A stretch of DNA of 64,000 bases from Paraspadella gotoi (taxonomy: Eukaryota > Animalia > Chaetognatha): assembly GCA_051294375.1 (NCBI GenBank), contig CM119265.1:21514278-21578277 (forward strand), given 5' to 3'. This document shows, piece after piece, positions 4,701 to 53,063 of the stretch. How positions within the stretch are numbered: the first letter of the stretch is position 1; every line of letters begins with the position of its first letter. The notes beneath the pieces are model-generated. The model was not told the origin of the DNA. It made no database searches and saw only the letters and a list, made by a program, of their open reading frames with translations. The position numbers and the translations under genes are program-made.

Positions 4701-7700
4701 ATCACGGCATCTCATCAATTTTCTGACTTTCGGTTCAAAACGTATTCCCCAGTGGGCTTTCGTCATTTGCGCGATATGTTCGCCATTCAGTCAGATGATT
4801 TTCTTGTGAGTTTCTTTTTAACGTTTAGATATCATTAAAAGCTCAGTAAAACTTTTCCGATTTAAAGAAATGCGTTAACTGTTAAGCAATGAAGGGACAT
4901 GATAAACCAAATCATATATTGTCCTTCAGATTTCCGTTTGCAACGAGTCGCTTAAAGAATTGTCAAATCCCGGAGCCAGCGGATCCATTTTTTTCTTATC
5001 CCGCGACGACGAATTCATCATCAAAACTGTGCAACACAAAGAAGCAGAGTTTCTTCAAAAGCTTTTACCCGGGTATTACATGGTAAGATAATTCTTTAAA
5101 CGTTAATGTATTCAATTGCTTAAATATAAAAGCTATCTCTTTAAAAAATTTACTAAATTTTGATTATTTTATATTTTATAATTTATATTTTATAAGAAAT
5201 ATCCTTCATTTATGCATAAGTTTTGTTTTTAGCCGAATAATTTTCAGCCATTACCGTCATGTGCAAAAAAATCGCTCCACTTTATTCCGGACTTTAAAAT
5301 TATTCTATATATGTACTTGAATTCTTTTTAAAAATTTAAAAAGTGAATTTAAATTTATTGAAAGATGGATCGGCTCTCAAAATAAATAAATAATAATCTT
5401 AAGGTTATTAATATTTACGATGAATGACAGGTCCATAATTCTGAAGCTTTTAGATAAAAGTCGATTTTCCCGTTTAAAATTATTTTTTTATAAAATTCTT
5501 AGAAATGTTTTTATAGAGGGTCTGAAATTTAAAGTTATAAAGTGACCATATTTTTTTGCACGAGTGTATTTGAAACGTCGTTACCGAGCTCATGAAATAT
5601 CAACCGCTTTACTCTTTTATTTCAGAATCTAGTCCAAAACCCAAGAACACTTTTGCCAAAGTTCTTCGGTTTATTTTGCTATCAGTGTAGTGGGAAAAAC
5701 ATTAGATTAAGCATCATGAACAATTTGTTGCCAACGTCGATTCCCATGCATCTGAAGTACGATCTCAAAGGCTCAACGTTTAAAAGAAAAGCGTCAAAAC
5801 ATGAAAGGGCGAAAAAGGTAACCCGAACCGTCCCTTCTTTCGCTAAGGTAAGGATTTGCTGTCCGCGTTAACTCTCCTATCTTTCCCATCGCTTCAGTCG
5901 CCGACCTTTAAAGATCTGGACTTTTTGGAGCAACATCCTTCGGGGATCGAACTCGAGGTCGAGACCTACGAGGCTTTGGAGAAGACTCTCCGCCGCGACG
6001 TTCGCGTCCTCGAGTCCTTCAAGATCATGGATTACTCGCTCCTCCTTGGAGTGCACAACCTCGACGAATATGAGCGGGAGAAGAAGAGAACGTGCGTATT
6101 TGCTTGACTGTTTAAATCCTAATTAAATTTTTTTAAATAAGTTGAAAGTTTTATTCGAACCATCACTTTAACTTAGACGCGAAGAACGCAAAAAAGCAGA
6201 CGTCACTCCAGACTCGGGCGGCGGCGACAACGACGACCCCGAAAATGATGGCGATAACAACGAATCGCAAGAAGAAGCGGAATCTGAGGGTCTCGGCGCC
6301 ATCGCCAAATTGGCTGGAGCTTCAGTTAAAGGTAACATGAAAGGCGCAAAATTATAATTATTATTATCGTTGTTATTATTATTATTATTATTATCTCATG
6401 AAGTTACCGGATTCGCCTGAAAAAAATGAAAAAAATTGAAATTTATAATAACATATTTTATATTTTTGACCTAACTTTTTATAAAGAGTCACAATCTTTA
6501 ATAAATATATTTTGAAAATGAATTATTTTGTAAGGTTGGATAATGTTTAGCAGTCGATTATTTTTTAAAATTTTAATCATCGGTGAAAAATGATAAAAAT
6601 TAACGGTAAAACGTTAAAACCGGTTAATTTGGTTGGTAACTATCCTTATTTTTGGAGAATCACAGGAACTGCCAAAATGTCTTAATAAAATATTAGTTTA
6701 TATTCTAATTAATTTATATTGACCCCCTTTTCCTTTTATTTCTTTTTCTGGCAGACGTATATTCATTAACAATAAATTCTTCAAAAAAAAACAACTACAA
6801 AACAAAAAAAATCCTAAAGGATTGTGTACTTATTCATAAGGAATTTAAAATTCTGGTATAGGAGCAGTGAGCATTTGTTAACAGACAGTACCTTGGGAGA
6901 GTGGGACTCGTTGAACTTGAAACAAACAGAAGATTTTGGGCCATCAAAAACTCAAAATAAAAACATTTTAAAATTAACCGTTAATTTTAAAAAAATTAAT
7001 CGATCAATTTGAAGAGACAGTAATTATTGTAATGTGTTAGTGATAGAACCGTTCAATATAAACAGTCCCTGAGCTTCGGATCAGGGTGTAACACCATGTT
7101 ACAGGCGGGTTAAGCACCCCGTCCCTCTTAACTGCTAGGCGACCACCGGGCTAGAACCCTGGACCTTTGGGTTGGGAGACGAATGACTTGCCTCTGGCAC
7201 CAATGGCCGCTGATGAACGGTTGGTGGATTTTAGTCCACCATAAATTAAAATTATTTTTCATCGATGATTAACCGTTAATCGTTAATCGGATAAAAGGCC
7301 TAATTGGGACGAGCTGGAAGGGAAAATGCTATCCGAGAGGCAAATATAGGATATCCCCCCACATTACATATTAATTTATTATAATTATATTTGTTCGCAG
7401 CCATGATTGTTCGTCAGAAGTCGATGAATCGCGAGCGCCTTTCGACGTTCACTACGGCTATGGAGTCCATAACAGCGGAGACGCTGAACGACCCGATAGA
7501 TTTGGACGAAGACATTCCGTGAGTGATAAAATAAATGATTATAACGGACGACGAATCTGGCTGAAAGCTCGACTCGCTCTTCATTCCTTAATTGATACAA
7601 TTTGCTTCTAACAGCGTCGGCGGCATTCCAGCTCGTAACTCCAACGGGGACCGTCTGCTTCTCTTCATTGGTATCATCGATATCCTCCAGAATTATCGTC

Positions 7701-14189: not shown

Positions 14190-16869
14190 AATTATGTTTG
14201 TCATCCTCCTATTCTTCCCTCACACCCATTCAAAATCCCAACTTCATTTCCAGTTTTTTTTTGTTTTTTTTTCGCGCTATTTCAGTTTTTCTTTTTTTTT
14301 AATTAACCGCCCGAAAGTTCGTTTACTTCATCCGCCATATCCCGACTCCGATGGTTTTTCAAATTTTTTGGGCGTCATTTGAATGTTTTTATTTTTAAAA
14401 AATATAAAGATGATGTAGACTGGCCGAGCGTAATGTATCAGTCGACTATGTACGAAACGTTCTCGTACTGTTTTACGAAATTATCCGTAAAGAGCATAGA
14501 AAGCGAAAACTATGATTCAAGTTTTTCTGTACTACCTGTGTTCGTCAACTTGCAACATTTTTCTTATCTTTTCCATTTACCCCTCGAATTTTTAATATGC
14601 GAGACTGTACTTTAAAAAAACGATTTTTTTCCTCCTTTTATTTACCTTTTGTGGTGTTTCCAGTTATATCCAGCTAGCTGTTATTGTTTTTCCCCAAATT
14701 TTGTAATGACACACACAGAACAGTAATAAGAAATTAATTCAGCGGTAATCTATGCAAATTATAATTATATAGATTTCACAAGAATTGTGTCACAACCACT
14801 ACTCTTATACTTTAATACTTTCTGCTTTCGGAGTTCTCAAATACATTGTGTAGTACTTTTAAAAAAATTGGAGAACATAACTAACTAGATGGTGAATTTG
14901 TGTGGTGCAACACATTGTGATAATCTTATTCCATTCAATTTTAATATTATATTCTTTTTCAGTTCAAATTCTCATAAATGTATTACTATTATATCATTCA
15001 GCATCACTGCTGAGGCCTTATATCACATCATAAAAATTAAGATCCCAAATATTTGATCACACACTAAATTCGTTTATTTAATTTACCAAATCTGGCTTAA
15101 TTATTGCTACTGAGTAGCAAAAGTTGTCAACGTGATTAAGCTTTCGTCGCTTATGATTACTTTGTCAGAGAAATGTCTATATCATTCTTATTAATATCAT
15201 TAATTATTAAAACCAGTCCTATTAATTTAAATTTTTTTCATTTAATGCAATGCTGTATTTTTACTCATAGTCAGTCGTATATAATTTAAAAAATCATTAA
15301 CTAGTTTGGAGTCGGCAGATATTTGGCAGCACCCATCAACCTTCCATAATATTGCAAGTCAGCTTTTAAATAATTGTAATTTGTAATTAAATTTAAAACA
15401 TACTTTTAAGTAGGCCTTCTTCCAGATTGCCATAAATTTAGGCATTATTGTTGTTGTTATTATTGTTAAGCATTATTTAGGCTGAGATTACGGATTAGTT
15501 GAGAATTAATAAAATTATAAATCGGGTTTAAATTATGCAACATGATTAGGAGTAGCTTAACTCAGTAAGGTGGTTAAGAAATTTAAATTAATTTTTTAAT
15601 ATTTATTTATAAATAGGAACGGTTAAAAATTTTTTTAAGATTTTTTATTTTTAAGATCGGATTCAGGTAGCTTGCAAAAAGTTGTCTACACAAAGTATAA
15701 TTCTTTTTTCGATATTTTGATGTGGGTGAAAAATATGAAAAACTATTAATAATCATCATCATCATATTTCAATAATTTTATTACTTATTTTTAATTTTGA
15801 CCAAGAAAACGTAAGAATTTTGGAAAGTTGTAGTTATATATTTTTTTTTATTTATTCAACTTTTTATGCTTTATCAGAATAGGTCAAAAAAATTTAAGAT
15901 TGATTTAAAAAAATGTTATTATTATTTAGTAAAATTATTTTTTTACCTAAAAGTAGACTTCAAGACTAAAGTTTTGAACCCCCGCCCATATTGAATTTAA
16001 TTTCATAGTAGATTTCTAATATGATGATTTTTCTGTTTTTGAAATTGTCAATGGACTTATGAGGGGAAAAAAAATATGTGTTCTATGCAAGATACTTCCC
16101 CTTCAAACTGTCTGTGACACATTTCAAATATTATAAATATAAATGTGGTATTCTCCTTTGCGAGGAAGGAATATGTTGTTTTGTTTCTGGTCGAGGGCGC
16201 TGGTTTTTATTTTAAAAAATCGAAAAACCTTAAGTTCCTGGGATTTAGTCTGCTTTTACAAGATGTGCTTGTGTTGTGCACATTTTTTTCTGGGTTTGTT
16301 CTTTGCCTGCTTAAGTTATCTTAAGCTTAAGTAAGATTTTAATTTTCGCAGACAAATCATGTGCTTGTATGGCACAGTAAAATCTGCTACGTAACTATTT
16401 TCCCAACAAAAATATTTTTTTAAAATTTTATCATTAATAATTTTATTATTAATAATCATTAATAATTTCCGTAGAATTAGGCCCAAAATGGCTCTACTGG
16501 ATTTTCGAATCCTTAACGAGATAATTATAATTAGAAACAAAAGTTTTTATTCCCCTGAAAACAAAACTGTTCGGACAGTAAAATTAGGAAGGGGCTCCTT
16601 GAGTAACTTTTCAATCTACCCGTAACTAAAGTTATGTGCTAAAAGTTAATTGATTTTCGAAATTAAGATGTATTATATTATCTAAAAAAATTATATTTAG
16701 CTTTAAAATTTGAACAATTATTTTAAGAAGTATTATTAAAAAAAAAAAATTCTTCATAAAAAATATAAAAATGAATGAAAATATAGATATAGGTGAAATT
16801 ACACTAAGTAGGCTTAGTCGTTCTTACATTTTTTTAACCATATAAAAAATGCGTTAATTATATAGAGTT

Positions 16870-17128
16870 CTGTGGCAGCAAGACTTAAAGCTGCCTCACT
16901 GCTGTCCGTCCTCAGCCTCGTCTCAATGGCTGAGCAGGCTAAATCATCTCATTCCATCCGTGCGTCCCAGGTTCAATCCCTGGGTATCCCGGTTCTGGCT
17001 TAAATGTGACGGTGCCGGTATAAACATGCCAGTGACAGGAGGCGGTCACTGAGGGTCCGCAGCCCCTACGCCAGTTGGTGAGATACCCCGCGCCCCGGGT
17101 ATCACAGGCTATCCTCCCGTTGCCATAG
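16870..17128 (+). mobile_element. SINE/retrozyme-like element: A-box/B-box tRNA-like segment plus twister ribozyme inside a closing four-way junction (copy B)
   Basis: A box TGGCTGAGCAGG (16927-16938), B box in T-arm CCCAGG-TTCAATC-CCTGGG (16966-16984), twister 16995-17074, and 3' end GTTGCCATA shared with the copies at 35286 and 35697. Confidence 0.75.
16995..17074 (+). ncRNA. Twister ribozyme, type P5 (copy B, best preserved)
   Basis: P5 CTGGC/GCCAG; P2 ATGT(17004-07)/ACAT(17024-27); GA 17008-09; T1 CGG(17010-12)/CCG(17057-59); mini-P1 TGCCGGTA; TAA 17021-23; T2 GC/GC; P3 CAGTGAC/GTCACTG; P4 AGGG/CCCT. All consensus elements are in the right order. Predicted cleavage 17021|17022. Confidence 0.88.
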
Positions 17129-18208
17129 TTCAAACTTAAATTTATGGGTTTTAACCATTTTTATCGAGTGTATAAACGAGATCGTGATGGTTTCGATTGA
17201 AAGCTTGCAGGGATCTGTTACGTCATTATCTGTCCAAAGTCTGGTGGCAAGATGCTTATTTATTAAATGAATATATAATTTCATTGCTTTTCTCAGGTGA
17301 TGCATTGTAATATTATTAGCAATCACTTGTAGAGTTGGGTCGGATTTTATTCTAAATCGCTTGACCCGACTCCTTCCAAGAATCTTTTCGAGCGACACAA
17401 AGGAAAAACGCGGATCTCAACAAAGAACTGGAATATGACGAGCGAGAGGATGAGAAATCTCTCAACGATTCTGATGACGTGGAATTCGGAAGGAACTCTT
17501 CGTATTCAGCCTCGAATGACAGAAAAAAAAAATCACTTCTTTCCTTTTGGGATGTCATTCATTTGAATATCAAATTGTAAGCCTCGCGATTTTTCCCCCC
17601 GATTGCGTGCGTCGGTTGTATAAAAACTTTTTTCCTTTTTTTCAATTTTACTTACATGTCGCTAATTTCAAGTTTTTGTGAAAAATTCTTTATCCGTACT
17701 CTTTACAAATATTTTAATTATTAAAGCTCTACCCGGACAATTTAACTATAAATTTCTTTCTTTCTTTATTTTTAAACTATAAATTTCTTTCAAAATAAAA
17801 AATATCCTTAGTTGGAATTTTGTTAATATTTATTTAAAATGTGTATAATTTTTGCCAAAATAAAAATCGTTTAACCCAATAAATATAATATAATATAAAA
17901 AAGAAACTAGATCAAAGTGAAACTGATAGCTGACAAATCCGCTCGTCGAAGACGCCTGTTTCTTTTTCCCGTTCAGGGACGCGGTCGTAAATTATTTTTC
18001 TGAATCCTCGGGAGATCTTGCGGTTCGAACCGGTTTATTTAGTTTTGTTTTTTTTTTATTTCGTTTTCAGTTCGGAGCTTGACACGGATCTTACAAATCT
18101 TATACCCGGAACAGTTTCTAAAAAAAACAACAACAAAAAAACATTTACGATTTGTTTGGGAAACTATTCCAATGAAGATAAAAATAAAATAAGCAAACTG
18201 GATAGAAA

Positions 18209-27200: not shown

Positions 27201-30200
27201 AAAAACAAAACCTTTTATTGTCCATGAAATGAGCCATACCTTTGATCATCTCTTCAAGTCGTATAACTTGAACTTCTGTTTGTTTTTTATACCTTCACAT
27301 AAATAACCTATTATTATAATTTGTAAATACTTTTCTTAATACTAATTTTATTATTAGAAATTTCTCAAAAGATTGAAGTGTTCAAAAGATTTTTACATTA
27401 TAAATACAGTGACGTGATTAATCTTTCTTTCGTTTTGTTTGTGTTATTTGAGATTAAATAGGACTAAGCTCTGACGAAAAAAGCCAGAGGTTTTTTTAAT
27501 ATATTCTTTTACCGGCCAATGTAGAATGATGGCAATATTGCTATTGTTAAGTTTCAAAAAAAATCCGACCATAAATATAGAAAATATTAACCAAAATCTT
27601 TGGAAAATCCACCCCTTCTTTGGAAGATTTTCACCATAGACGATTTTTATTGAATCTGACTCCCGGTTGAAAACTCTTAAAATTCCGATCATTAGCTCCT
27701 CTTTTACTTTTACTTTAAATAAAAATTTCACCAAAATGGACTAATTCATTTTACCATGATTGTATCATATTAATATAACCAAATAAAATGTGAAGAAAAA
27801 TTTTGAGAGCACGTGGGCAATAGACTTGTGGAGTCCCACACTTCGACCACAGGCACTTCGATGGACTTGTGGACAACTGACGGAGGCGGTGACAGAGGCT
27901 GACACCCTCGACGACAAAGGGTCTCGGCGTCACTCGCGACGGCACCACCAAAGGGGCGCTGGATGCGGCCGCGCCCACTTCCGGCGACGAGGGGAGTTAA
28001 CGGCAGTCTCCCCCAGTAATGGCGCGACGGGTCATAGGATGGAGATAAGCCTGGCAAGGCAGTCTGACTACTAGTTCCTCGACAGTAAAAGGGCCTTATT
28101 TGTGTCTTCGTCCTTTGGGGTCATAGGACGGAGATATGCCTGGCGAGGTAGGCTGACTACGAGTTCCTCGACAGTGGAAAAGTAAAAGTCAGTGGATCAA
28201 TTTTATTAAAAGTATCAGAAATTGTGGATCAACAATGGTTCTTTAGGTTTGTTTTAAATTTGTTAAAAATAAAGACTATAATAAAGATATTACTGTAGTC
28301 GGGCATTGCATAAGTTCACCCCGCCTATGAGCATGACACCTTCAGTCGTGACTCGGTTGCTCATTGAGTAAAGCCATCAGCTCATGACCACTAGGTACCA
28401 GGTTCAATCCCAACCCGGTACCTACCCTGCGGGAAGCATGAGGACGGCCGTAAGCCGCCTTGGGGGCGTGGAAAGCCCTCAAGCCTGATTCCAAGCCCAG
28501 GACCCGTTCCATGGCTGCTAGAGGGGGTCATAGAAGTTATGGATAGTCATCTTCAGCCCACATAGCGCCTTATCCACATTAGCCATTATAATAATTATAG
28601 GTATCAAGTATATTTAGCAAAGGAGGAATTGTTGTAAGCAGAAAAAAGGCACAATAAATCTTAAGATCATAATAGATATATTATATCAGTTTCACACATA
28701 TGGATGATTCATAGGCCTTAATATACAGTAAGAAAGATGAAATAAAATGACTATCGCCAGAACTGCTGCTGGTGAATTTTTGCGCATCATTTTTGGGAAT
28801 CAAGAATGATCAATTTGTTGAGAGAAAATCTATTTGCATCTCCTGTAACCAGAGGTTTTGCGAGGAAAGCCTAGTTTTTGCGCAACAATAAAAAGAAATA
28901 TTGCTTTCTGTACTATTCCAATATTTTTCTTATTTGAAAGATTCTTTTTGGGTTTTTAGTTAGACTTACCCCTACAGTACCTAGATTTAAAAAATAAAAT
29001 TTTTCTTCTTAGAATTTTCCATACAGTAAATATTTCAAAAAACCTTGTTTTTTGGAATCAAATTCCCTATTATTTTTTGGTCGATAGAAAAAAAAAAAAT
29101 TCGTCGAATACTGCTAATCCCTATCTATGGCGAAAATCTTCCAAAGAAGGGGTGGATTTTCCGAGGATTTTGGTTAATATTTTCTATATTTATGGTCGGA
29201 TTTTTTTGAAACTTAACAATATCAATATTGCCATCATTCTACATTGGCCGGTATAAAAATATATTTAAACCTCTGGCTTTTTTCGTCAGAGCTTAGTCCT
29301 AACATTATCTAATATATTTTCTTACCAAATGTTAACCTCTGCTTCTCTCTCTCTCTTACAAAATTTAATTTCTTTTCCCTCACATTCTCTCTCTCTCTCT
29401 ACCAACTTAAACCTGTCCTCACATTTCACCACTGTTCTGTCTCACATCTTTGTTGGCCATTTTTTCCCTCTCTATCACTCTCTCTCTCTCTCTCTCCCTA
29501 AGTCAATTTTGAAAACATGAAAATGTGAATTGTCAAAGCATTGATGAAGGCTTGAATGTAAGCCAAAACTTGTCTGTACCACTAAAAATAAATTCGTTGA
29601 TGTAAAAAGACTGTCTTTAATCTCAAATAAATACAGTGACAAAAAACTAAGTTAACCTCATCGGGTTTTACCTGCACCATATAGTTTCAATTTAAGATCG
29701 CCAAAACAATTCATAATTTTGTAAAAACTATAAAAGTGTTTTTAATTATGAATCTAGTAATAATTTACTTGCTAGTTTTGGTAAATAAACCTGATCCATG
29801 CAAAGCTTCATGCCAGACAACAGCGGTGACATTTCCATTGTTGTCACCCATAATCATTATAGCTTGATTCATGTTATCTTTGTTAAACCAATAGTCAATG
29901 CAACCCAAGCAGGTCTCAAATCCGACGATGTGATAGCGTCTGAAAGAAAAATTTCAGAAAATTTGTTAAAAAACTAATTAAATAATACTTTATTTTTTGT
30001 GGATTACCTCCAAAAAGAAGTGCCGGTTGTATCATAAATATGGATATCACGATTGGTAGTTGTGGCGGCTATTGCATTAACATTAAGCATTGAACAGGCG
30101 TCAAGGATCCAAACCTATTTAAAAATCCCATGAAAACGAAAGGCCAATTATTTTTCTTTTCTATATTACCTTACTGTTCATTGCTTTACGAGTAGGAGTG

Positions 30201-33200: not shown

Positions 33201-36200
33201 TCCGAGCTTTTATTGAGTATTGCTCGTTTCCTTGAGCTGTTTTTTTACTGTGAAATATTGGTTTCTAGGAACTGGTGCGTCATGGCATTCCGAGGCCTTT
33301 TCGTGGGCTTGCTTGGCAACTCATATCTGGAGCGTACGATTCGGGATCAAAAGAATTATACAGGTTTTCACGAACCTCGTCTACCCATCGCCCTATCATT
33401 TTTAAATCAATACTGGATTAATTTTACTTTCGCCGACCGGGGTTAAGGGTGGTTTAGGGTTACGGGTATTTAGGGTTAATAGATAATAATTTTTTTTAAT
33501 TTTTTTAAAAATAAAAAGTTTAAATTGGTTTTTCAAAAAACGCCAAAACCCCGGTCGGCGAAAGTAAAATTTTGCCTCAATACTTTTTGTTTTTTCAGCG
33601 AATACATGAAACAGACTTCGCCGTGCGAGAAAATCATCCGGCGAGACATCGCGAGAACTTATCCCGAAAACGATTTCTTTCGTGAGAAGGATGGCTTGGG
33701 CCAGGAGAGCCTTTTCAACGTCATGAAGGCTTACTCTCTGCATGATCGGTTTGTAAATCTTTTTGCTTACTTTTCAATTATTTTTAAACCAATTATCCGT
33801 TGAAATTTATTTTCATTTTGTTTGCAGTGAAGTGGGCTATTGCCAAGGTTCCGCATTCATAGTCGGTCTTCTTTTAATGCAAATGCCGGAGGAAGAAGCT
33901 TTCGCCGTACTCGTTCAACTCATGCAGAGATTTCAGCTGAGAGAATTGTTCAAACCGTCCATGCAAGGTTATTGAATACTGTTCAGTATTCAGTGTATAC
34001 AGATTACATAGGCTTATCTGATAACAATGATCTCGGTCTCACTTCTTCTGTAAACTATGAAGCTTAACTTTTAAAGCATTTTCACGAGGCTCAAGGTGTT
34101 ATTGCATCGATTATTACTACTATTATTATTATATTAGAAAGATTTACTTTATATTTCAGAACTAGGACTTTCGATGCATCAGCTAGATTCGTTGGTCCAA
34201 GAGCAACTTCCCGATCTTCATGCACATTTCACTCAACAGAACTTTCATACTACTATGTACGCGTCGCCATGGTTTCTGACGCTCTTTGCCACCTCGTTGC
34301 CACAGGTACATATTTGCTTCTATAGTCTTATATTAACCTCAGCCCTTTCTGTTACTACATATTTGTATCTATTACATATGAAAATTTGCAAATTACTTGT
34401 TTCACTATTTTCTATTTTATATTTATGAAGGATTTAGTATTTAATCTTATTTTTAATCAAACATATATTGCTTTCTTTCTTAAAAATGTTTTATTTATCT
34501 AATAATTCAATTTGGGAAGGGGAAGTCAGTGTTGTCTTCTGGAAATAGAGGGAGCATCTATACAACACAAGGTTAGATTACTATCTGTCCTAGTTTTCTA
34601 ATAGATATCACACATCATTTCTGTTAGAAAGTCATTAATGAAAAATCATAATATCTAAGAGGCTGAACAGAAAGGGGTGGGAATGGATAATTTTTTAGGG
34701 GTTACCAAAGTTATATATGATTTTTTTTACCAATAGGGATAAGACTACCATGTAGAATTGTATGTTCTGATAGGGATACATACCGGGGAAAGGTCTATAG
34801 GGGCACCTTTATGTCATGAATATAATTTTAAAATTATATTTTTTCTTTATTCTACTTTTTAATTATTTCTTTTTTGAATATTTTTATCTTTTATTTTTAT
34901 ACAATGGGAAGGTCATCAGTTGGGAACCTATACCCTTCATGGATTTCGGCTCTTTAATCCCAATATCCAGGTATAGGCGAGCCATCACCAAATGGTGATC
35001 CTTCATTGTTGCTTATCTTATATTTTAAATGTATATCTTGAATGTTTATCTGAAACAGACCAAAGCCCTGGAGAAATTTTATTAAGGTTTTGTAATAATT
35101 TGTAATTTGTAAATAAATAAAATAAGTTAAATAATTAGTTTAATAATAAGTTAATAATTAAGGGTATGTTAATGTAAAGTTAACATTAAGTTAATTGGTA
35201 AAAGTTAAAAAATAAATTAAATCAGAGAGTTAAATATAATAAATATATATATATAAAGCAGTGTTTATTTTGAGTATTATAGTATTATGGCAACTGCCGG
35301 GTTTCCTGTGATGCCCATCTCACTGTTGGCTTTGGGGGCTTCTGACCCTCAGTGACGCCTCCAGTCACTGGCGCAGTTACTCTAGGACGGTCTTGCTTTG
35401 CCAACGCAGAGGGAAGACTGGATGGAACACAACGCCTGGGATGGTGTGTTCCCCCTCTGAGCCAATGGGATTGGCTAAACGATGATGGACATGAGGTGGT
35501 GTGAATATACCACCACAGGATCCCCAGTCCATCACTCGGGTTCCTCAAGCCTGAGAGGTGTCTGACAAGACTATTACCATAGTGGGAGAGAGAGAGCGAG
35601 CGCGAGTTGAGGGGGCATAGGCGTTTGTCGTAGCGTACCCAAAGTTGGCAGGGCATAGGCATTTGTCGTAGCGTATCCTGAGAAGGGCTCACCACTTATG
35701 GCAACAGCCTGCAATGACCTTTGGGATGGGGCATCTCAATGTTGGCTTTGGAGGCTTCCCACCCTCAGTGACGCCTCCAGTCATTGGCGCGGTTACCCTC
35801 GGACAGTCTCGCTTTGCCAACGCAGAGGGAAGTCGTTAGGACTGTGGGATGGTGTGTTCCCCCTCTGAGCCAATGGGATTGGCTGAACGATGATGGACGT
35901 GAGGCGGTGTGTATATCCCGCCACAGTATCTAATATTTCTTTAGCATTTTCGATTTCTTATGTTAATGTTTTTTTCAACTCAGGATCTTGCTGCGCGCGT
36001 CATGGATCTCATTTTGGCTGAAGGAACGATCTTTATTTTCCAAATGGGAATGGCTATACTACGCATGTCCGCTTTGGACCTCATGGCTCTCGACATGGAG
36101 CAAATGATTCGGGTGAGAAAATATATGGAGCCGAATGCGTGCAAGAATAACCTCATTTTATGAAAAAATTTGTAATCGAAAGAAATTCATCGTACACCTT

Positions 36201-46037: not shown

Positions 46038-48758
46038 ATGAAGCCTCTTGTCATCTTCGGATCCGAGCGTAAATACGTTCCTGTAGTGGACGAGAATGGC
46101 GACCTCGTCGCCTACCGCCCCACCGATGCCACCCCCCCACCTCCTCCCCCTACCAACGATGCCGCCCCTCGCCCCCGAAGAAGGAAGAAGCGGAACGCCG
46201 TCTTCGTGGTCGAGTCCAAGGGTAAGCACAGCGTGGTCCCCTGCCGACCGGACACGCCTCCTCCGCTCGTGCAAGGAAGCGACAAGGATGAAAAAGAGGA
46301 AGAGAAGAGAGCGACGAAAGTCGCTTTCGAGCGGAACTCGGTGTCCAAGTTGCTGGACGATCTGAGTCATAAGTACGCCGCCTCCAAACTCCCGACTAGG
46401 GAGACAATCAGACGGCGGGCCTCGGAGAGACTTTCTCGCCGGCTTGAGAACGAGAATTTGAATCGTGACGAGGAAAGACCGGGGCGAGACGATCCCGTGC
46501 TCGTTTATCGTCGAGCGAGGTTCGTATTATTTATTCGCTACTAGTCATCGTGATATTATTCTTTCATATTCAGAGCAACACTATAAATTTGAATTACCAA
46601 TTGAAAAAAGTGATAATTCATTTATATTTTTACTTAGTCCTTCCAAATCGGCTCCTATCACGGTCCTCGACAAAAACTTTGGCTACAATCCTTACGGGTC
46701 GACCACATCGTCTTATTGGTCGTCATCGCCGCGTTCTCTAGCTCCTCCCCCGCCGCCGCCTCCTCCACCGCCGGGTGAAATAGTTTGCGCCGTTTGCGGC
46801 TTTCCCTATTGCATCTGCGGTTTCGGGATTCCCAGTTTCGAAACTTTCGACGGAGGACCGCCAGGTTTTATAATTTATTAAAAATGTCCCCAAGAAGAGT
46901 AATAAGAAATGGAAAATTATAACGTTATTTTTTTCGCTATTTACCAGCATTCGGACGTGCCGCCCCGCCGCAGCCGGAGGAGGAGGAATATTCCATGTCC
47001 TCGGCGTATTACCCTCCGCCTCCACCCCCGCCTATCAGTTATCCTCCTTACTACCCGTCTTACAGTTACACTCCGTATTACAGCTCTTATTATGATGCTC
47101 GGTCGGGAAGCGGAAGATATTGTCATTGTGAGCGGAACAATCAACGAGCAAGCAGTAGTCGATCTTGGTCCGGGGAGGGCAAGGCCACGTCGCAGCAGTC
47201 GAAAAAAAAGTAGGTATAACTGGTGCTTTGGCTGTAACTACGTAGTTTTTCTTGACATTTGTTTCGGCTAATACTAAAGTTTGAGTGTTGTCGGATTTAA
47301 CTTGCTCAAAACGATTCCCTTTTGTTTCAGAAAAGCCAGAGAACTCGAAGATCAAAAGACGAGTCGCTCCCGGGATTCTTCCTCGTCGTCCACTTCCTAT
47401 TCGGAATACTTTAACATTAATAAGGACAAAAATAAAAGCAAAAATAGAAATTCAAATGATAATAGAATGACGGCGAGTGATTGAGAAAACCGATGTTTTT
47501 CGGGTGATATTATGATAAGTTTGCCAATATTTCTATAAAGCGATGGTTTTGTAGATATGATAACAATTACGTGTATATATAATGGAATAAGAACATGAAG
47601 GGTAAATCACTAAATGAACATCTCTCTAAGCGCCGTAAAACGTGGTTTTCCTCTCCACTTATTCCGCCCGATGCCCGTTTTCGGTGCCTCCCTCGAGTTA
47701 GCGCTCCCGAAGCCTTCCGGTGGTCTACTTCCGACAAATCTTTACGGAACGCAACGAGTCTTGCACTAAAGGCAGTCCTCAGGATGGTTATTTCAAGTTA
47801 GCGTCTCCAGGGAGAAAACGTCCGCAGTCCCCCGCGCGCGACGAATCCGTCTCACAGTCGCCCGAGGTTCCGCCGCCGATTATCGCTGAGGAGCCTAAGT
47901 TTTCCGTCGCGAGTCGAATATCGTCTCCCAAAGCCAGCCTCGTTGAGGCGCCTCCGCCTCCGTTTTACAATTGCAGGGAACTCTCGTGTGCCCCGCTCGT
48001 GATAAGGGCGAAATGCGCTGCACCCATGATCTCGCAGTCGCCTTGTATTGCTCCTTGTTCCGATGCTTATTATCCGAGACCAGTGCGTCAATTTATTCCT
48101 CGGTTGAACGATTATTCTTGCCCTGGGAACCGAGAGGACGACCTCGCCGCGAGGGCTTGGACGAACGACTGTTCCGAGGATCGCTCGTCTCCTTTGCATA
48201 ATCTGGTCCGTGGTGACCCTTGTCGCAGTGGAGTCGTAAGACGTTTTGTGGGCAGACCATCGAAAGCTTGCGAGGTCAGTAGAGGGTTAATCTTATTAAT
48301 TATTATTACTGCCATTGTTGTCTACTAGCGGTCTCAATGGTCAGGTATGTGCCCGCCTCCCCTGCGTATGTTGCCTTCGATGCGTTTGCTACCCTTGTAT
48401 CTGTCCCGCGTCGGGCGTCGCGTCTTGCCCGACCTGTTTCCTCAACCCCTGCGCGTGCCGGGCCTCTGGTCCCTCCCGCTCCAGTCGCTCTTCGTGGCGA
48501 ACGCTTCTCGAGACAGAAGAGGAGCTGCTGAGACGCCTGGTGGGTCGCGTCCGCCAGGTGGACTCTCGATCTTCGACGGCCAAGCGCCAGATCGACCAAA
48601 TGAAGCGCCTCTACGAAACACGGACGTCGAAGACGAATGACGTGGCGGGTGACGTGGGGAAGCTGAAAGGAGAGAATAAAAACCTTGCTGAGCTAAGAGA
48701 GAAACTGGAGGAGGAGAGAGAAAAGCTGAGAAAGGTGATAACCGAGTGCGACTGTTGA
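46038..48758 (+). CDS. Orphan Pro/Ser/Tyr-rich and Cys-rich protein(s) with C-terminal coiled coil (one or two genes)
   Basis: GC-rich exon-like ORFs at 46038-46520, 46639-46864, 46949-47211, 47331-47484, 47702-48274 and 48345-48758, separated by AT-rich intron-like gaps. CxxCxxxxCxC motifs recur (CAVCGFPYCIC, CLRCVCYPCIC, CPTCFLNPCAC). Confidence 0.55.
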
Positions 48759-50138: not shown

Positions 50139-50446
50139 TTCTTTAAAATTTAATTAAATTAATTTATTCGTACCATGTGACTTTTATGGAATTTTTTTAG
50201 ATGTTTAATGGTGGTTTTTTTTTTTCATTACAACAATTCGTTTTTCTGAAATTAGTGTGATTTTGTTTTTCTCTTTTTCTTACCTCGCTCTGAAAACAAA
50301 AGACGAAACAAGATCCGTTATTTCTTGTATGATTGATTTTTGTTGTAATGAAGCGTTTATTGGTTTCCAATTTTTTACTACGCTACCAGAACTAACTACT
50401 GAAATTATTACATTATCAGTTATTTAGTTGAAACAATTAAAAAATC

Positions 50447-51868
50447 ATGTCGGTTGTTGGGCAACCGACGGTTCACTTCCCCTCGGTCGATCCCGGGAAA
50501 GACCTAGGTGGTGATACTCAAAAGGACGGAATTTGTAGCGCCGCTTCCTCTGGGTACGAATCTCGAATTGACAGAAATGTTCCATCCTATGGTCAACGTT
50601 CGTCGTCCGAAGACGACTGGACGTCTGACGAAAGTTTTGGCGAAAAGGCTCAGGCTGACGACAACGCCGGTGCACAAACTGCGGATCCCGGCGATGACGA
50701 GGACGGAACTCCCAACGAACAAATCGCGACTGACGTCTTTGATCGTCAGCGTCGCCTAGACGACAAGTTTTTATTCCTTCCGGCGCCAAAAGTCATCCAG
50801 GACTCTAGATCGCCAATGCAACGTCTTCACGATTATTTGGCGAGTAAAGAGGCGAAGTCCGTTGATCCGACTCCAATGGCGCAACTGAAGCAATACTTGC
50901 GCAACAAAATCTCCGTCGGCTTCGAAAAGGCCGGAAACTATGAGCTTGACCCGTCGAACAACCGCGTGGACAAAAACGACGACGTCAATAAGACCTCGTC
51001 CAACTTCAGTCTCAACAGCCTCACCTCTCAGGAATCGGGCGTCACTTCCGCGACGACTCAAACTCTAGATTCCGCCGACGAAGTCTTTTCTCACACTTAC
51101 GTCTTGAAGCAGAAGCGACTAGACAAAATGCGCCGCAGGAGTTCGGCGCGGAGTCGGTCCAGCGATTCTGAGACGCGTTGCTGCTTCATTTGCAACCAAG
51201 TCGGCCACGTTGCTCGTCGTTGCCCCTTAAGGGCCAGCCGGAGTGCTTGTCCCCGTTGCCAAGCTCTCGTCGATCCGAATGGCAAGGAAAAAGTCAGAAA
51301 AGGTTCTCAAACGTACGTGCCTGAAACGTCCGTTTTTGAAGGGGTGGCCAAGGGCAGCCGATTTGACACTTTCGACTCCATTCCCATCACCTTAACTGGG
51401 CAGAAAACCAGCAATTTATGTAGTATTAAACGGTTCGAAGAAGCCAATTTGCACCAAAAGGTAAAGAGAGAAAGAAATATAACTCTATCAAGATATAAAA
51501 TTTATGTTTCCTCAAGGTGGTGGACAATGTTCTAAGCGAAAACTATGAAAAAGCGACTCCGGTTCAGCGCTACGCCATCCCTATCATCCTCCTTGGGCGC
51601 GACCTAATGGCCTGTGCCCAGACGGGCTCTGGCAAGACTCTCGCCTTTGTCCTCCCTATTCTCAGTCAGATATTCGGTCGAGGCGTCGCGAATATCGAGT
51701 CCAAGTCTCCACTAGCTCTCATTCTCGTTCCGACGAGGGAGTTGGCGTCTCAGGTCCACAAGCACGTGGAGCGATTCGGTCGAGGGACGGATATTAAGTC
51801 GATGACTCTATACGGGGGTACCAGCCTCGCCTTTAACGTGCAAAAGATTGAAGAGGTTATTTTATGGA

Positions 51869-51917
<49 letters not shown>

Positions 51918-53063
51918 ATAAACCGTTTATCAGGGATGTCACATTGTCATTGCTACTCCGGGTCGACTTTTGGCTCTGATGCACCGAAAACAAATTAATC
52001 TTTCAAATGTCAAGTATTTCGTGCTGGACGAAGCCGACCGATTGCTTGACTTGGGCTTTGAGTCTGACATTGTCAATATACAAAAAAACGGTAGGTTTAT
52101 ATAATTTTCTCATTTTTATGGTAAAATTAAAAACTTGACCATCTCTTTTTAGGAATGCTTCCCAAGGGTCAACGTCAAACCATGATGTTCTCAGCAACTT
52201 TTCCTAAATCCGTCCAATGCTTAGCGGCGTCCTTTATGATCAATCATCTTTTCTTGTGCGTTGGAGATGAAGGCGTTGCCTGCCACAATGTCAGGCAATC
52301 AGTGATTCTAGTCCCCGCTGCTGAAAAGAAGCGAAAGCTTATTGAAATTCTCAACCAGTTGACCGGGGAGAAAGTGATGGTGTTCGTCGAGCAAAAGGTT
52401 TGGGATTAAACGATTTTAGTAGATATCTGTATTCTGTTTTGCGAAAGGCCTCGTAATTATAATTATATTCAAACAAAAATGTTTATTGAAAAGTACTTGA
52501 TTGTTTCTCTTCAGCGAAATGCAGATTTTTTGGCGTCTTATCTCTCGCTCACCGGTTTCCCATCTACTTCGATCCACGGCGATCGTGAACAGCCGCAACG
52601 CGAGGAAGCTTTGCGCGACTTCCGGCGCAAGACCACGCCTATTCTCATCGCCACTAATGTCGCTGCTCGTGGTCTCGACATCCCCGAAGTCGAAATGGTG
52701 GTCAACTATGACGTTCCGTCTTCTGCGGACGAGTACGTACACCGAGTGGGACGTACGGGACGATGTGGTAACCTAGGCAACGCTATTACATTCTTCGACG
52801 ACGAAAACACCGTCGACGTCGAGCTTTCTCCGGAGATTGTCCGCCAGCTCCGTCTTTGCCAGCAAGACGTTCCGAAATGGCTGGAGCTTCTTGCGGAGAA
52901 AGTCAAGGCCGCCGAGTCGAGGTCTTCTCGTGATTCGCGAAACTCGTTAAAGCGAGGAATGCGAGCCAAGGGTCCCAGCGAATATCTAGTGGATGCCGCT
53001 ATGAGTTCTGCAGAAGATTGGGAAGACTTCCAACAAACGCAAGAAGAAGAAACGTGGGACTGA
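50447..53063 (+). CDS. vasa: Vasa/DDX4-like DEAD-box RNA helicase with one CCHC zinc knuckle
   Basis: [14 protein letters not shown]; [95 protein letters not shown]; acidic Trp terminus EEETWD. Confidence 0.88.

Follow-up and report, generated by a model that had tools for sequence, protein, structure and literature searches.

Retrozymes built on the hammerhead ribozyme have so far been placed in two groups, those with long terminal repeats (LTRs) in plants and those without LTRs in animals, according to the available text of the relevant papers (PMC4918200, PMC5680766, PMC6765202, PMC7229834, PMC7761336). The plant LTR retrozymes, as described in the accessible part of Cervera et al. 2016 (PMC4918200), are non-coding elements with two LTRs, each including a type III hammerhead, and they feature a 4-bp duplication, a Met primer site, solo LTRs and a unit RNA between the two cuts. 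The animal non-LTR retrozymes are high-copy elements on the scale of 170-400 nt, with type I hammerheads, arranged in tandem arrays with longer duplications and, in the text available, without LTRs or a primer site (PMC7229834). Helenus/TRIMp3 elements are miniature LTR elements of 311-1263 bp with A and B boxes in the LTR, a 4-bp duplication in animals, a primer site for a tRNA 3' end and many solo LTRs, and no ribozyme is reported in the accessible text (Kojima 2024, PMC10886601). Twisters on animal retroelements are represented by the variants of Schistosoma Perere-3, in which a weak or absent P1 is tolerated (PMC8501958), and unpublished truncated twisters at RTE 5' ends are also mentioned (PMC7761336). 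Of particular interest here is the type-P5 twister, a circularly permuted layout of this ribozyme described in the available part of PMC5408937.

Here, we present a locus from a 64-kb stretch of DNA (64,000 nucleotides, hereafter the window) of the chaetognath Paraspadella gotoi. In our reading, which we consider reasonably probable, the locus is an old copy of an abundant, non-coding miniature LTR element of an animal, each LTR of which carries a likely type-P5 twister, and intact members of the family would release a unit-length and probably circular RNA to be copied by a likely Ty3/gypsy helper. The data include the LTR layout, the 4-bp duplications, many insertion sites, the core letters and pairings of the twister, and exact A and B boxes in a sister family.

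Judged from its sequence, the locus is a miniature LTR element with two LTRs. The whole element measures 640 bp (35286..35925, minus strand) and consists of an LTR, an internal part and a second LTR between duplications of GTAT (left copy 35282..35285, right copy 35926..35929, plus strand). The 5' LTR (copy A, 229 bp, 35697..35925) and the 3' LTR (copy B, 232 bp, 35286..35517), both on the minus strand and delimited by repeat alignment and contig ends, match each other at 194 positions and differ by 30 mismatches and 13 gap columns. Each LTR begins with TG and ends with TA on the minus strand, and the inverted ends are imperfect. A preliminary description of the locus had correctly placed two diverged copies 411 bp apart (starts at 35286 and 35697) and had taken them for a head-to-tail tandem, which is not what the locus holds, as between the two LTRs lies a non-coding internal part of 179 bp (35518..35696, minus strand) and GTAT flanks the whole. 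Two nt behind the 5' LTR, a TGG-led, primer-binding-site-like sequence (35685..35694, minus strand) matches the complement of the tRNA-Trp 3' end at 9 of 10 nt in a by-eye comparison with the tRNA of the honeybee, not of the host (Fig. S2 in the accessible material of PMC10886601). None of the literature text matches listed for this string concerned retroelements by title. CsRn1-like gypsy elements are described as combining a tRNA-Trp primer site with 4-bp duplications (available text of PMC2582038), which is a lead only. A clear polypurine tract was not found before the 3' LTR of this one old copy, in which the last 15 nt hold 9 purines and the best stretch has 9 of 12. Further, the internal part holds a 36-bp direct repeat at 38-bp spacing (35605-35678).

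This architecture closely follows that of the plant LTR retrozymes, which are likewise non-coding, with two LTRs each carrying a ribozyme (here predicted) and a 4-bp duplication, and whose primer site, solo LTRs and unit RNA have counterparts here in the primer-site-like sequence, a solo LTR and a predicted 416-nt unit (35379..35794, minus strand, from the spacing of the two predicted cuts). In contrast to the type III hammerhead and Met primer site of the plant elements, the element has a twister-like motif of type P5 and a Trp-like site, and it resides in an animal. It is also smaller (LTR 229-257 bp, unit 416 nt), has tRNA-like Pol III boxes and no clear polypurine tract, and its circle is only predicted (comparison with the available text of PMC4918200). 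Since the motif in each LTR is twister-like and not a hammerhead, the element may act like an LTR retrozyme, but it is not a member of that group as defined. With Helenus/TRIMp3 it shares the layout, namely the 4-bp duplication and the many solo LTRs, with a primer-site-like match to a tRNA 3' end, and its 640 bp fall within their size range. However, the LTRs here end in TA, the A and B boxes are exact in the sister family only, copies A and B lack the B box, and two twister L4 strings gave no match in the accessible Helenus supplement (PMC10886601), where line breaks can hide matches. The analogy with retrozymes drawn in the preliminary description thus survives as the best reading, but with the two-LTR layout of plant LTR retrozymes and TRIMs in place of an animal non-LTR array.

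On either side of the element lies a coding stretch of a plus-strand RabGAP-TBC gene, and the two stretches cover profile positions that follow on from each other (134-181 and 183-215), which makes an intronic location, with the ribozyme strand antisense to the gene, most likely. The window also encodes EGF, C-type lectin and bestrophin domains, as well as a vasa/DDX4-like helicase with a zinc knuckle (50441-53063, plus strand). The top database match of this helicase, a record from a sturgeon assembly, carries a contamination flag. Its best matches are spread over many animal phyla, with identities of about 42-64%, and the source animal lacks close relatives in the protein database. No reverse-transcriptase or integrase domains were found among the 109 frames of at least 95 aa in the window, and the window holds neither a gypsy partner element nor tRNA genes (ARAGORN). 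Run X9, which is only guessed to be RNA, covers the flanking intron DNA too and was therefore left out as expression evidence.

Public contigs align to the first family, that of copies A and B, in all four runs (5839, 5596, 1978 and 394 contigs), and likewise to the sister family (1678, 1707, 710 and 627 contigs). Contig cover stops at the element ends, and dozens of contigs per run continue exactly there into unrelated AT-rich DNA. In runs X1, X2 and X5, contigs with unrelated flanks number 35, 36 and 38 behind position 35517 and 48, 45 and 36 behind position 35925. The data suggest hundreds of copies or more, and depth ratios after crude division range from 179 to 1107, which are not copy numbers. 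The ratio of summed depth between the LTR and the internal part, a weak measure, is 2.3 to 7.8 in the four runs and gives a weak hint of two-LTR copies plus solo LTRs and not of long arrays; no contigs span the two-LTR locus. Of the LTR sites listed, 10 in copy A and 11 in copy B deviate from the family majority (32 further rows stand outside this list), and the insertion is therefore old. Beyond the source animal, metagenome and viral contigs gave 0 matches to the family motif, none of the 51 metagenome matches obtained with a looser pattern survived the pairing filter, and the search for relatives in phages returned no match.

A third copy, more distant than A and B are from each other, stands alone 18 kb from the two-LTR element. 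This solo LTR of 257 bp (16871..17127, plus strand) was delimited by its repeat match to copies A and B and by contig ends, and is enclosed by a GTTC target-site duplication (16867-16870 and 17128-17131, plus strand). It differs from the majority letter of its family at one listed site, which lies outside the ribozyme, and on sequence grounds the sister family is young and homogeneous, with a full twister-like core. About 170 bp downstream of the solo LTR, near 17297, there is a possible plus-strand splice acceptor; on a predicted gene structure, the solo LTR is possibly sense-oriented in a host transcript. One sister-family contig runs past the LTR end into a TGG-led, primer-site-like sequence, and in some others the stretch ahead of the LTR start shows a purine-rich consensus, with an agreement of about 0.45. 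These contigs hint at an internal part in the sister family too.

The twister-like motif of type P5 is present in all three LTRs, as motif A (35741..35821, minus strand), motif B (35325..35405, minus strand) and the solo motif (16995..17074, plus strand). The cuts predicted earlier for A and B (35795|35794 and 35379|35378) fall on U|AA sites of the minus strand that are 416 nt apart, and the solo motif has its predicted cut at 17021|17022. In all three copies, U-A-A at the cut, G-A, both G-C halves of T2 and the L4 spacing occur in P5 order. The motif has the same order as the type-P5 twister (RF02684, PMC5408937, in its available text), P2'-GA-T1'-P1-UAA-P2-GC-P4/L4, with both pseudoknots and the general acid/base positions, but differs from it in an 8-nt P1 linker, a 7-bp P3, a closed P5 and a non-canonical T1, and lies far below the Rfam cut-offs. 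In the solo motif, P2, T1, T2, P3 and P4 are all paired without mismatch and P5 at 5 of 6 pairs, and the first L4 A position holds a C, which is reported to be tolerated (PMC11662667, available text). Motif A has one T1 mismatch and one T1 wobble, one P3 mismatch and end mismatches in P2 and P4, and motif B has a mismatch in the middle T1 pair, a P1 mismatch and end-pair mismatches in P2 and P4, which gives three mismatches each across P2, T1 and P4.

None of the copies reaches a curated profile threshold. An Rfam scan of the whole window (E<=1) returned no twister match, and in an 801-nt scan twister-P1 matched copy B only, on the 3' part of its motif (19.7 bits, E 0.23, cut-off 67.2). For the solo copy, three window sizes gave nothing, 17.6 bits and 20.4 bits with the same model and cut-off. 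Twister-P5 (RF02684) matched none of the three copies, and no hammerhead match was obtained in the Rfam scans of the window and the locus. A type-P1 reading was dropped, as the Rfam alignment fails at 3 of 4 P1 pairs and 2 of 4 P2 pairs, most of which the P5 reading resolves; the missing P1 and P2 partners were found upstream of the cut site, the arrangement of the type-P5 permutation (PMC5408937, available text). As the gathering scores of RF02684 and RF03160 are not reached, we call the motif twister-like and not a catalogued member. The earlier designation of the copies as twister elements stands for the type-P5 core letters and pairings, the strand, the cut sites and the 416-nt unit, but not at the level of a curated Rfam threshold.

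With a descriptor of the motif, the solo copy was the sole perfect match in the window, and there were 0 matches in 60 shuffles of the window; the descriptor was written after the copies had been seen, and this control is therefore not blind. At the 3-mismatch level needed for A and B, shuffles give 0.55 matches per window. A further descriptor match at 47506 was judged a chance match (AT-rich, wobble pairs). Among the copies, 5 of 23 pairs are altered on both sides, including 3 in P2, and 1 of 500 shuffles reaches as many, a count that rests on three sequences and on a structure derived from them. By our reading, at all 9 listed ribozyme-core sites at which A or B leave the family majority (again with 32 further rows outside the list), the majority letter keeps or improves pairing. 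The two families also differ by a swap of the middle T1 pair. For comparison, an outside set of P5 twisters was compiled from 226 loci, which yielded 78 matches past the pairing filter, 69 of them distinct, and 67 after removal of two short alternative registers (L093, L156). The same T1 swap occurs in 1 of these 67 phage/prokaryote twisters, which Rfam scores at 49.3 bits as Twister-P5. This phage twister (L076:584-641, minus strand) adjoins a second P5 twister, and several phage contigs hold paired P5 twisters (L057, L063, L096, L105). With a model built from the 67 outside twisters, the solo copy scored 8.8 bits (E 1.4, rank 4 of 7), and copies A and B were not matched. In pseudoknot-free folding, neither P2 (pairing probability <=0.19) nor P4 (<=0.10) is favoured. 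A plus-strand structure, a loop-to-upstream pseudoknot with wobble pairs, was dropped because the loop varies in the family; plus and minus folds are alike in z. The likely twister identity is based on the type-P5 reading, the compensatory changes between the two families and the fully paired solo copy.

Mutational data for twister indicate that T1 pairs are mostly exchangeable and that unpaired T1 bases lower activity, and that flaws in P1, P2 and most of P4 are tolerated whereas T1 mismatches are the damaging kind (PMC5113685); a single PK2 flaw lowers mean cleavage from 0.76 to 0.65 (PMC11662667, available text). The T1 and P2 mismatches pointed out earlier are present in both copies (one T1 mismatch each and the same P2 end mismatch), and the suspected loss of activity is plausible for both in view of their T1 mismatches. 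In light of the mutational data, copies A and B would thus be weakened and probably cut poorly, but are not surely dead.

Possible promoters are found just upstream of the ribozyme. A scan for Pol III boxes, for which part of the B-box consensus is our assumption, located an exact A box (16927-16938, plus strand) and an exact B box (16970-16980, plus strand) in the solo LTR, 31 nt apart and just upstream of the ribozyme motif, and this is the only exact pair in the window, with a mean of 0.0 in 50 shuffles. A-box-like sequences were read at the corresponding place from copy A (35862..35872, minus strand) and copy B (35454..35464, minus strand), neither of which has a B box within 2 substitutions; in copy A, a deletion shortens the B-box region. 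Runs of 4 T are absent from both strands of both elements, and the sense strand therefore has no obvious Pol III terminator.

Other repeats in the window also have tRNA-like heads. At about 7030-7240 (minus strand), such a head is followed by a partial twister-like motif in which T1 and P4 pair, with no clear pairing in P2 and T2; this repeat is the top match of the outside-P5 model (11.1 bits, E 0.37), has no Rfam twister match and is possibly a SINE with a twister-derived body. A second tRNA-like head, at about 28340-28560 (plus strand), occurs with a canonical twister L4/T1 and a 6-nt palindromic linker, while P2 is unpaired. Relaxed scans give 1.3 partial twister-like matches per shuffled window, and each of the two repeats is weak alone. 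The latter motif is enclosed by a 182-bp inverted repeat pair (27459-27640 and 29124-29301; 94% identical, 1.8 kb apart), possibly a non-autonomous DNA transposon. A further repeat at 33420-33571 has perfect 25-bp inverted arms around telomere-like TTAGGG-type repeats, is MITE-like and is the source of weak plant-miRNA Rfam matches.

From these features we infer a replication route that follows the plant retrozyme model, as laid out in the available text of PMC4918200 and PMC7761336. Pol III would transcribe across both LTRs from the tRNA-like boxes just upstream of the ribozyme, and two self-cuts would release a unit RNA (416 nt here) in which one permuted LTR is joined to the primer site and the internal part. 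A host ligase would close this RNA into a circle, reverse transcription around the circle would be primed by a tRNA (tRNA-Trp), and a gypsy integrase would insert the product with a 4-bp duplication, while LTR-LTR recombination would leave solo LTRs. A doubly cut RNA would lack a terminal repeat, and a circle (or multimer) would therefore be needed to rebuild two LTRs. For this worn copy, the predicted 416-nt circle reaches 60% pairing (z -1.4) and does not surpass its antisense; retrozyme RNAs reportedly have a self-pairing above 70% (PMC4918200, available text).

A peculiarity of the motif is its short P1. The linker between T1' and the predicted cut measures 8 nt in 3 of 3 copies (35796..35803 in motif A and 35380..35387 in motif B, minus strand; 17013-17020 in the solo motif, plus strand), whereas each of the 67 phage/prokaryote P5 twisters has 14-25 nt, under a pattern that allowed 5-25. 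A 2-bp P1 hairpin would cost +2.5 to +6.3 kcal/mol over the copies. The solo linker is fully self-complementary, with a homoduplex at -10.9 kcal/mol versus a 2-bp hairpin at +5.0, and so, by our reading, is the majority linker of the first family, despite differing from it at 5 of 8 positions; copies A and B each break the self-complementarity once. Fully self-complementary P1 hairpins are found in 4 of the 67 outside P5 twisters. The short P1 recalls the short helix III of animal hammerheads, and in axolotl, according to the accessible text of PMC7229834, hammerheads in which a tetraloop (palindromic in one group) caps a helix III of 1-2 bp cleave better as dimers. Together with this precedent, the self-complementary linkers suggest a P1-swapped double twister, that is, a Pol III-driven animal LTR retrozyme in which the linkers of the two LTRs would pair mutually and cutting would be efficient only when both LTRs are transcribed. 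We offer this only tentatively, as possible and not as the expected outcome; P1 is dispensable in type-P1 twisters (available text of PMC5408937 and PMC11662667; PMC5113685), and monomers may therefore cut well. If true, the double twister would be the counterpart of the double hammerhead, would give exact unit-length circles and would spare host transcripts crossing the many solo LTRs.

Of the other readings of the locus, the one that survives best, and which we still regard as rather unlikely, is a Helenus-type TRIM whose active twister would serve to form RNA ends only and would give no circle. If cutting is confined to the 3' LTR copy, the RNA would extend from the Pol III start to that cut, keep a terminal repeat and replicate as an ordinary linear LTR RNA. 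This would agree with the finding that neither element has 4 T in a row on its sense strand (nor on its antisense strand), with a predicted circle that is not highly self-paired, and with the twister variants that process the 5' end of linear Perere-3 (PMC8501958, available text). However, the same motif is present in both LTRs, so the 5' copy should cut too and remove the terminal repeat, and plant elements of the same layout are reported to accumulate as circles (PMC7761336, available text). Perere-3 resembles the locus as a twister on an animal retroelement with a relaxed P1, but has a single ribozyme at the 5' end of an autonomous non-LTR element and, in the accessible text, no pair and no circle (PMC8501958).

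It is improbable that the motif came into an ancestral LTR as the passenger of an inserted tRNA-derived SINE and cuts in no member any more. The weak profile scores, the two other tRNA-head repeats with partial twister-like motifs in the window and the SINE insertion proposed as the origin of Helenus (PMC10886601, available text) point in this direction, but the double changes between the two families preserve pairings and the full core persists in the young, homogeneous sister family.

Less probable still are head-to-tail repeats as in animal non-LTR retrozymes or satellites, with 1.55 units remaining at this locus. Formally the locus does equal 1.55 units of a 416-nt circle, some TRIMs form arrays as well (LTR-11_DR; PMC10886601, available text), and arrays elsewhere are compatible with the contig data. 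The element is also, like the animal non-LTR retrozymes, of high copy number, of similar scale and from an animal, but it differs in the ribozyme class, the LTRs and the primer-site-like sequence. Exact inverted termini, 4-bp duplications and solo units stand with that sequence against a head-to-tail repeat, as the available description of the non-LTR retrozymes (PMC7229834) has longer duplications and none of these features, and the summed depth ratio of LTR to internal part, though a weak measure, is 2.3 to 7.8 in the four runs and not about 1. As the LTR model predicts two-LTR copies and solo LTRs, a rarity of tandems, proposed earlier as grounds for refutation, is the wrong test. Finally, a GC-rich, MITE-like DNA repeat with a chance likeness to twister would account for the short inverted termini, the many solo units and the weak profile scores, but is very improbable in view of two direct copies around an internal part with one common duplication, five helices and catalytic letters in twister order, and exact A and B boxes.

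The best reading of the locus is, in our analysis, an animal element akin to LTR retrozymes and Helenus that would carry a twister in place of the hammerhead, and such an element was not found in the literature searched. Judged by title and abstract start, none of the matches listed dealt with a twister in an LTR or with a dimer-requiring twister; subscription papers, the lists of Roth et al. 2014, Lünse et al. 2017, Repbase and bioRxiv supplements lay outside this search. In the young sister family, whose core is intact, cleavage, dimer dependence and the formation of circles can be tested directly. The miniature LTR retrozyme proposed here joins two things that have been described separately, the TRIMs with tRNA promoters and the retrozymes. 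As the motif is missed by standard profiles, similar families may be overlooked elsewhere. If the reading is true, twisters would have a second concrete job in animal genomes besides that in Perere-3, and the route of retrotransposition via ribozyme and circle would have arisen again with another ribozyme class.
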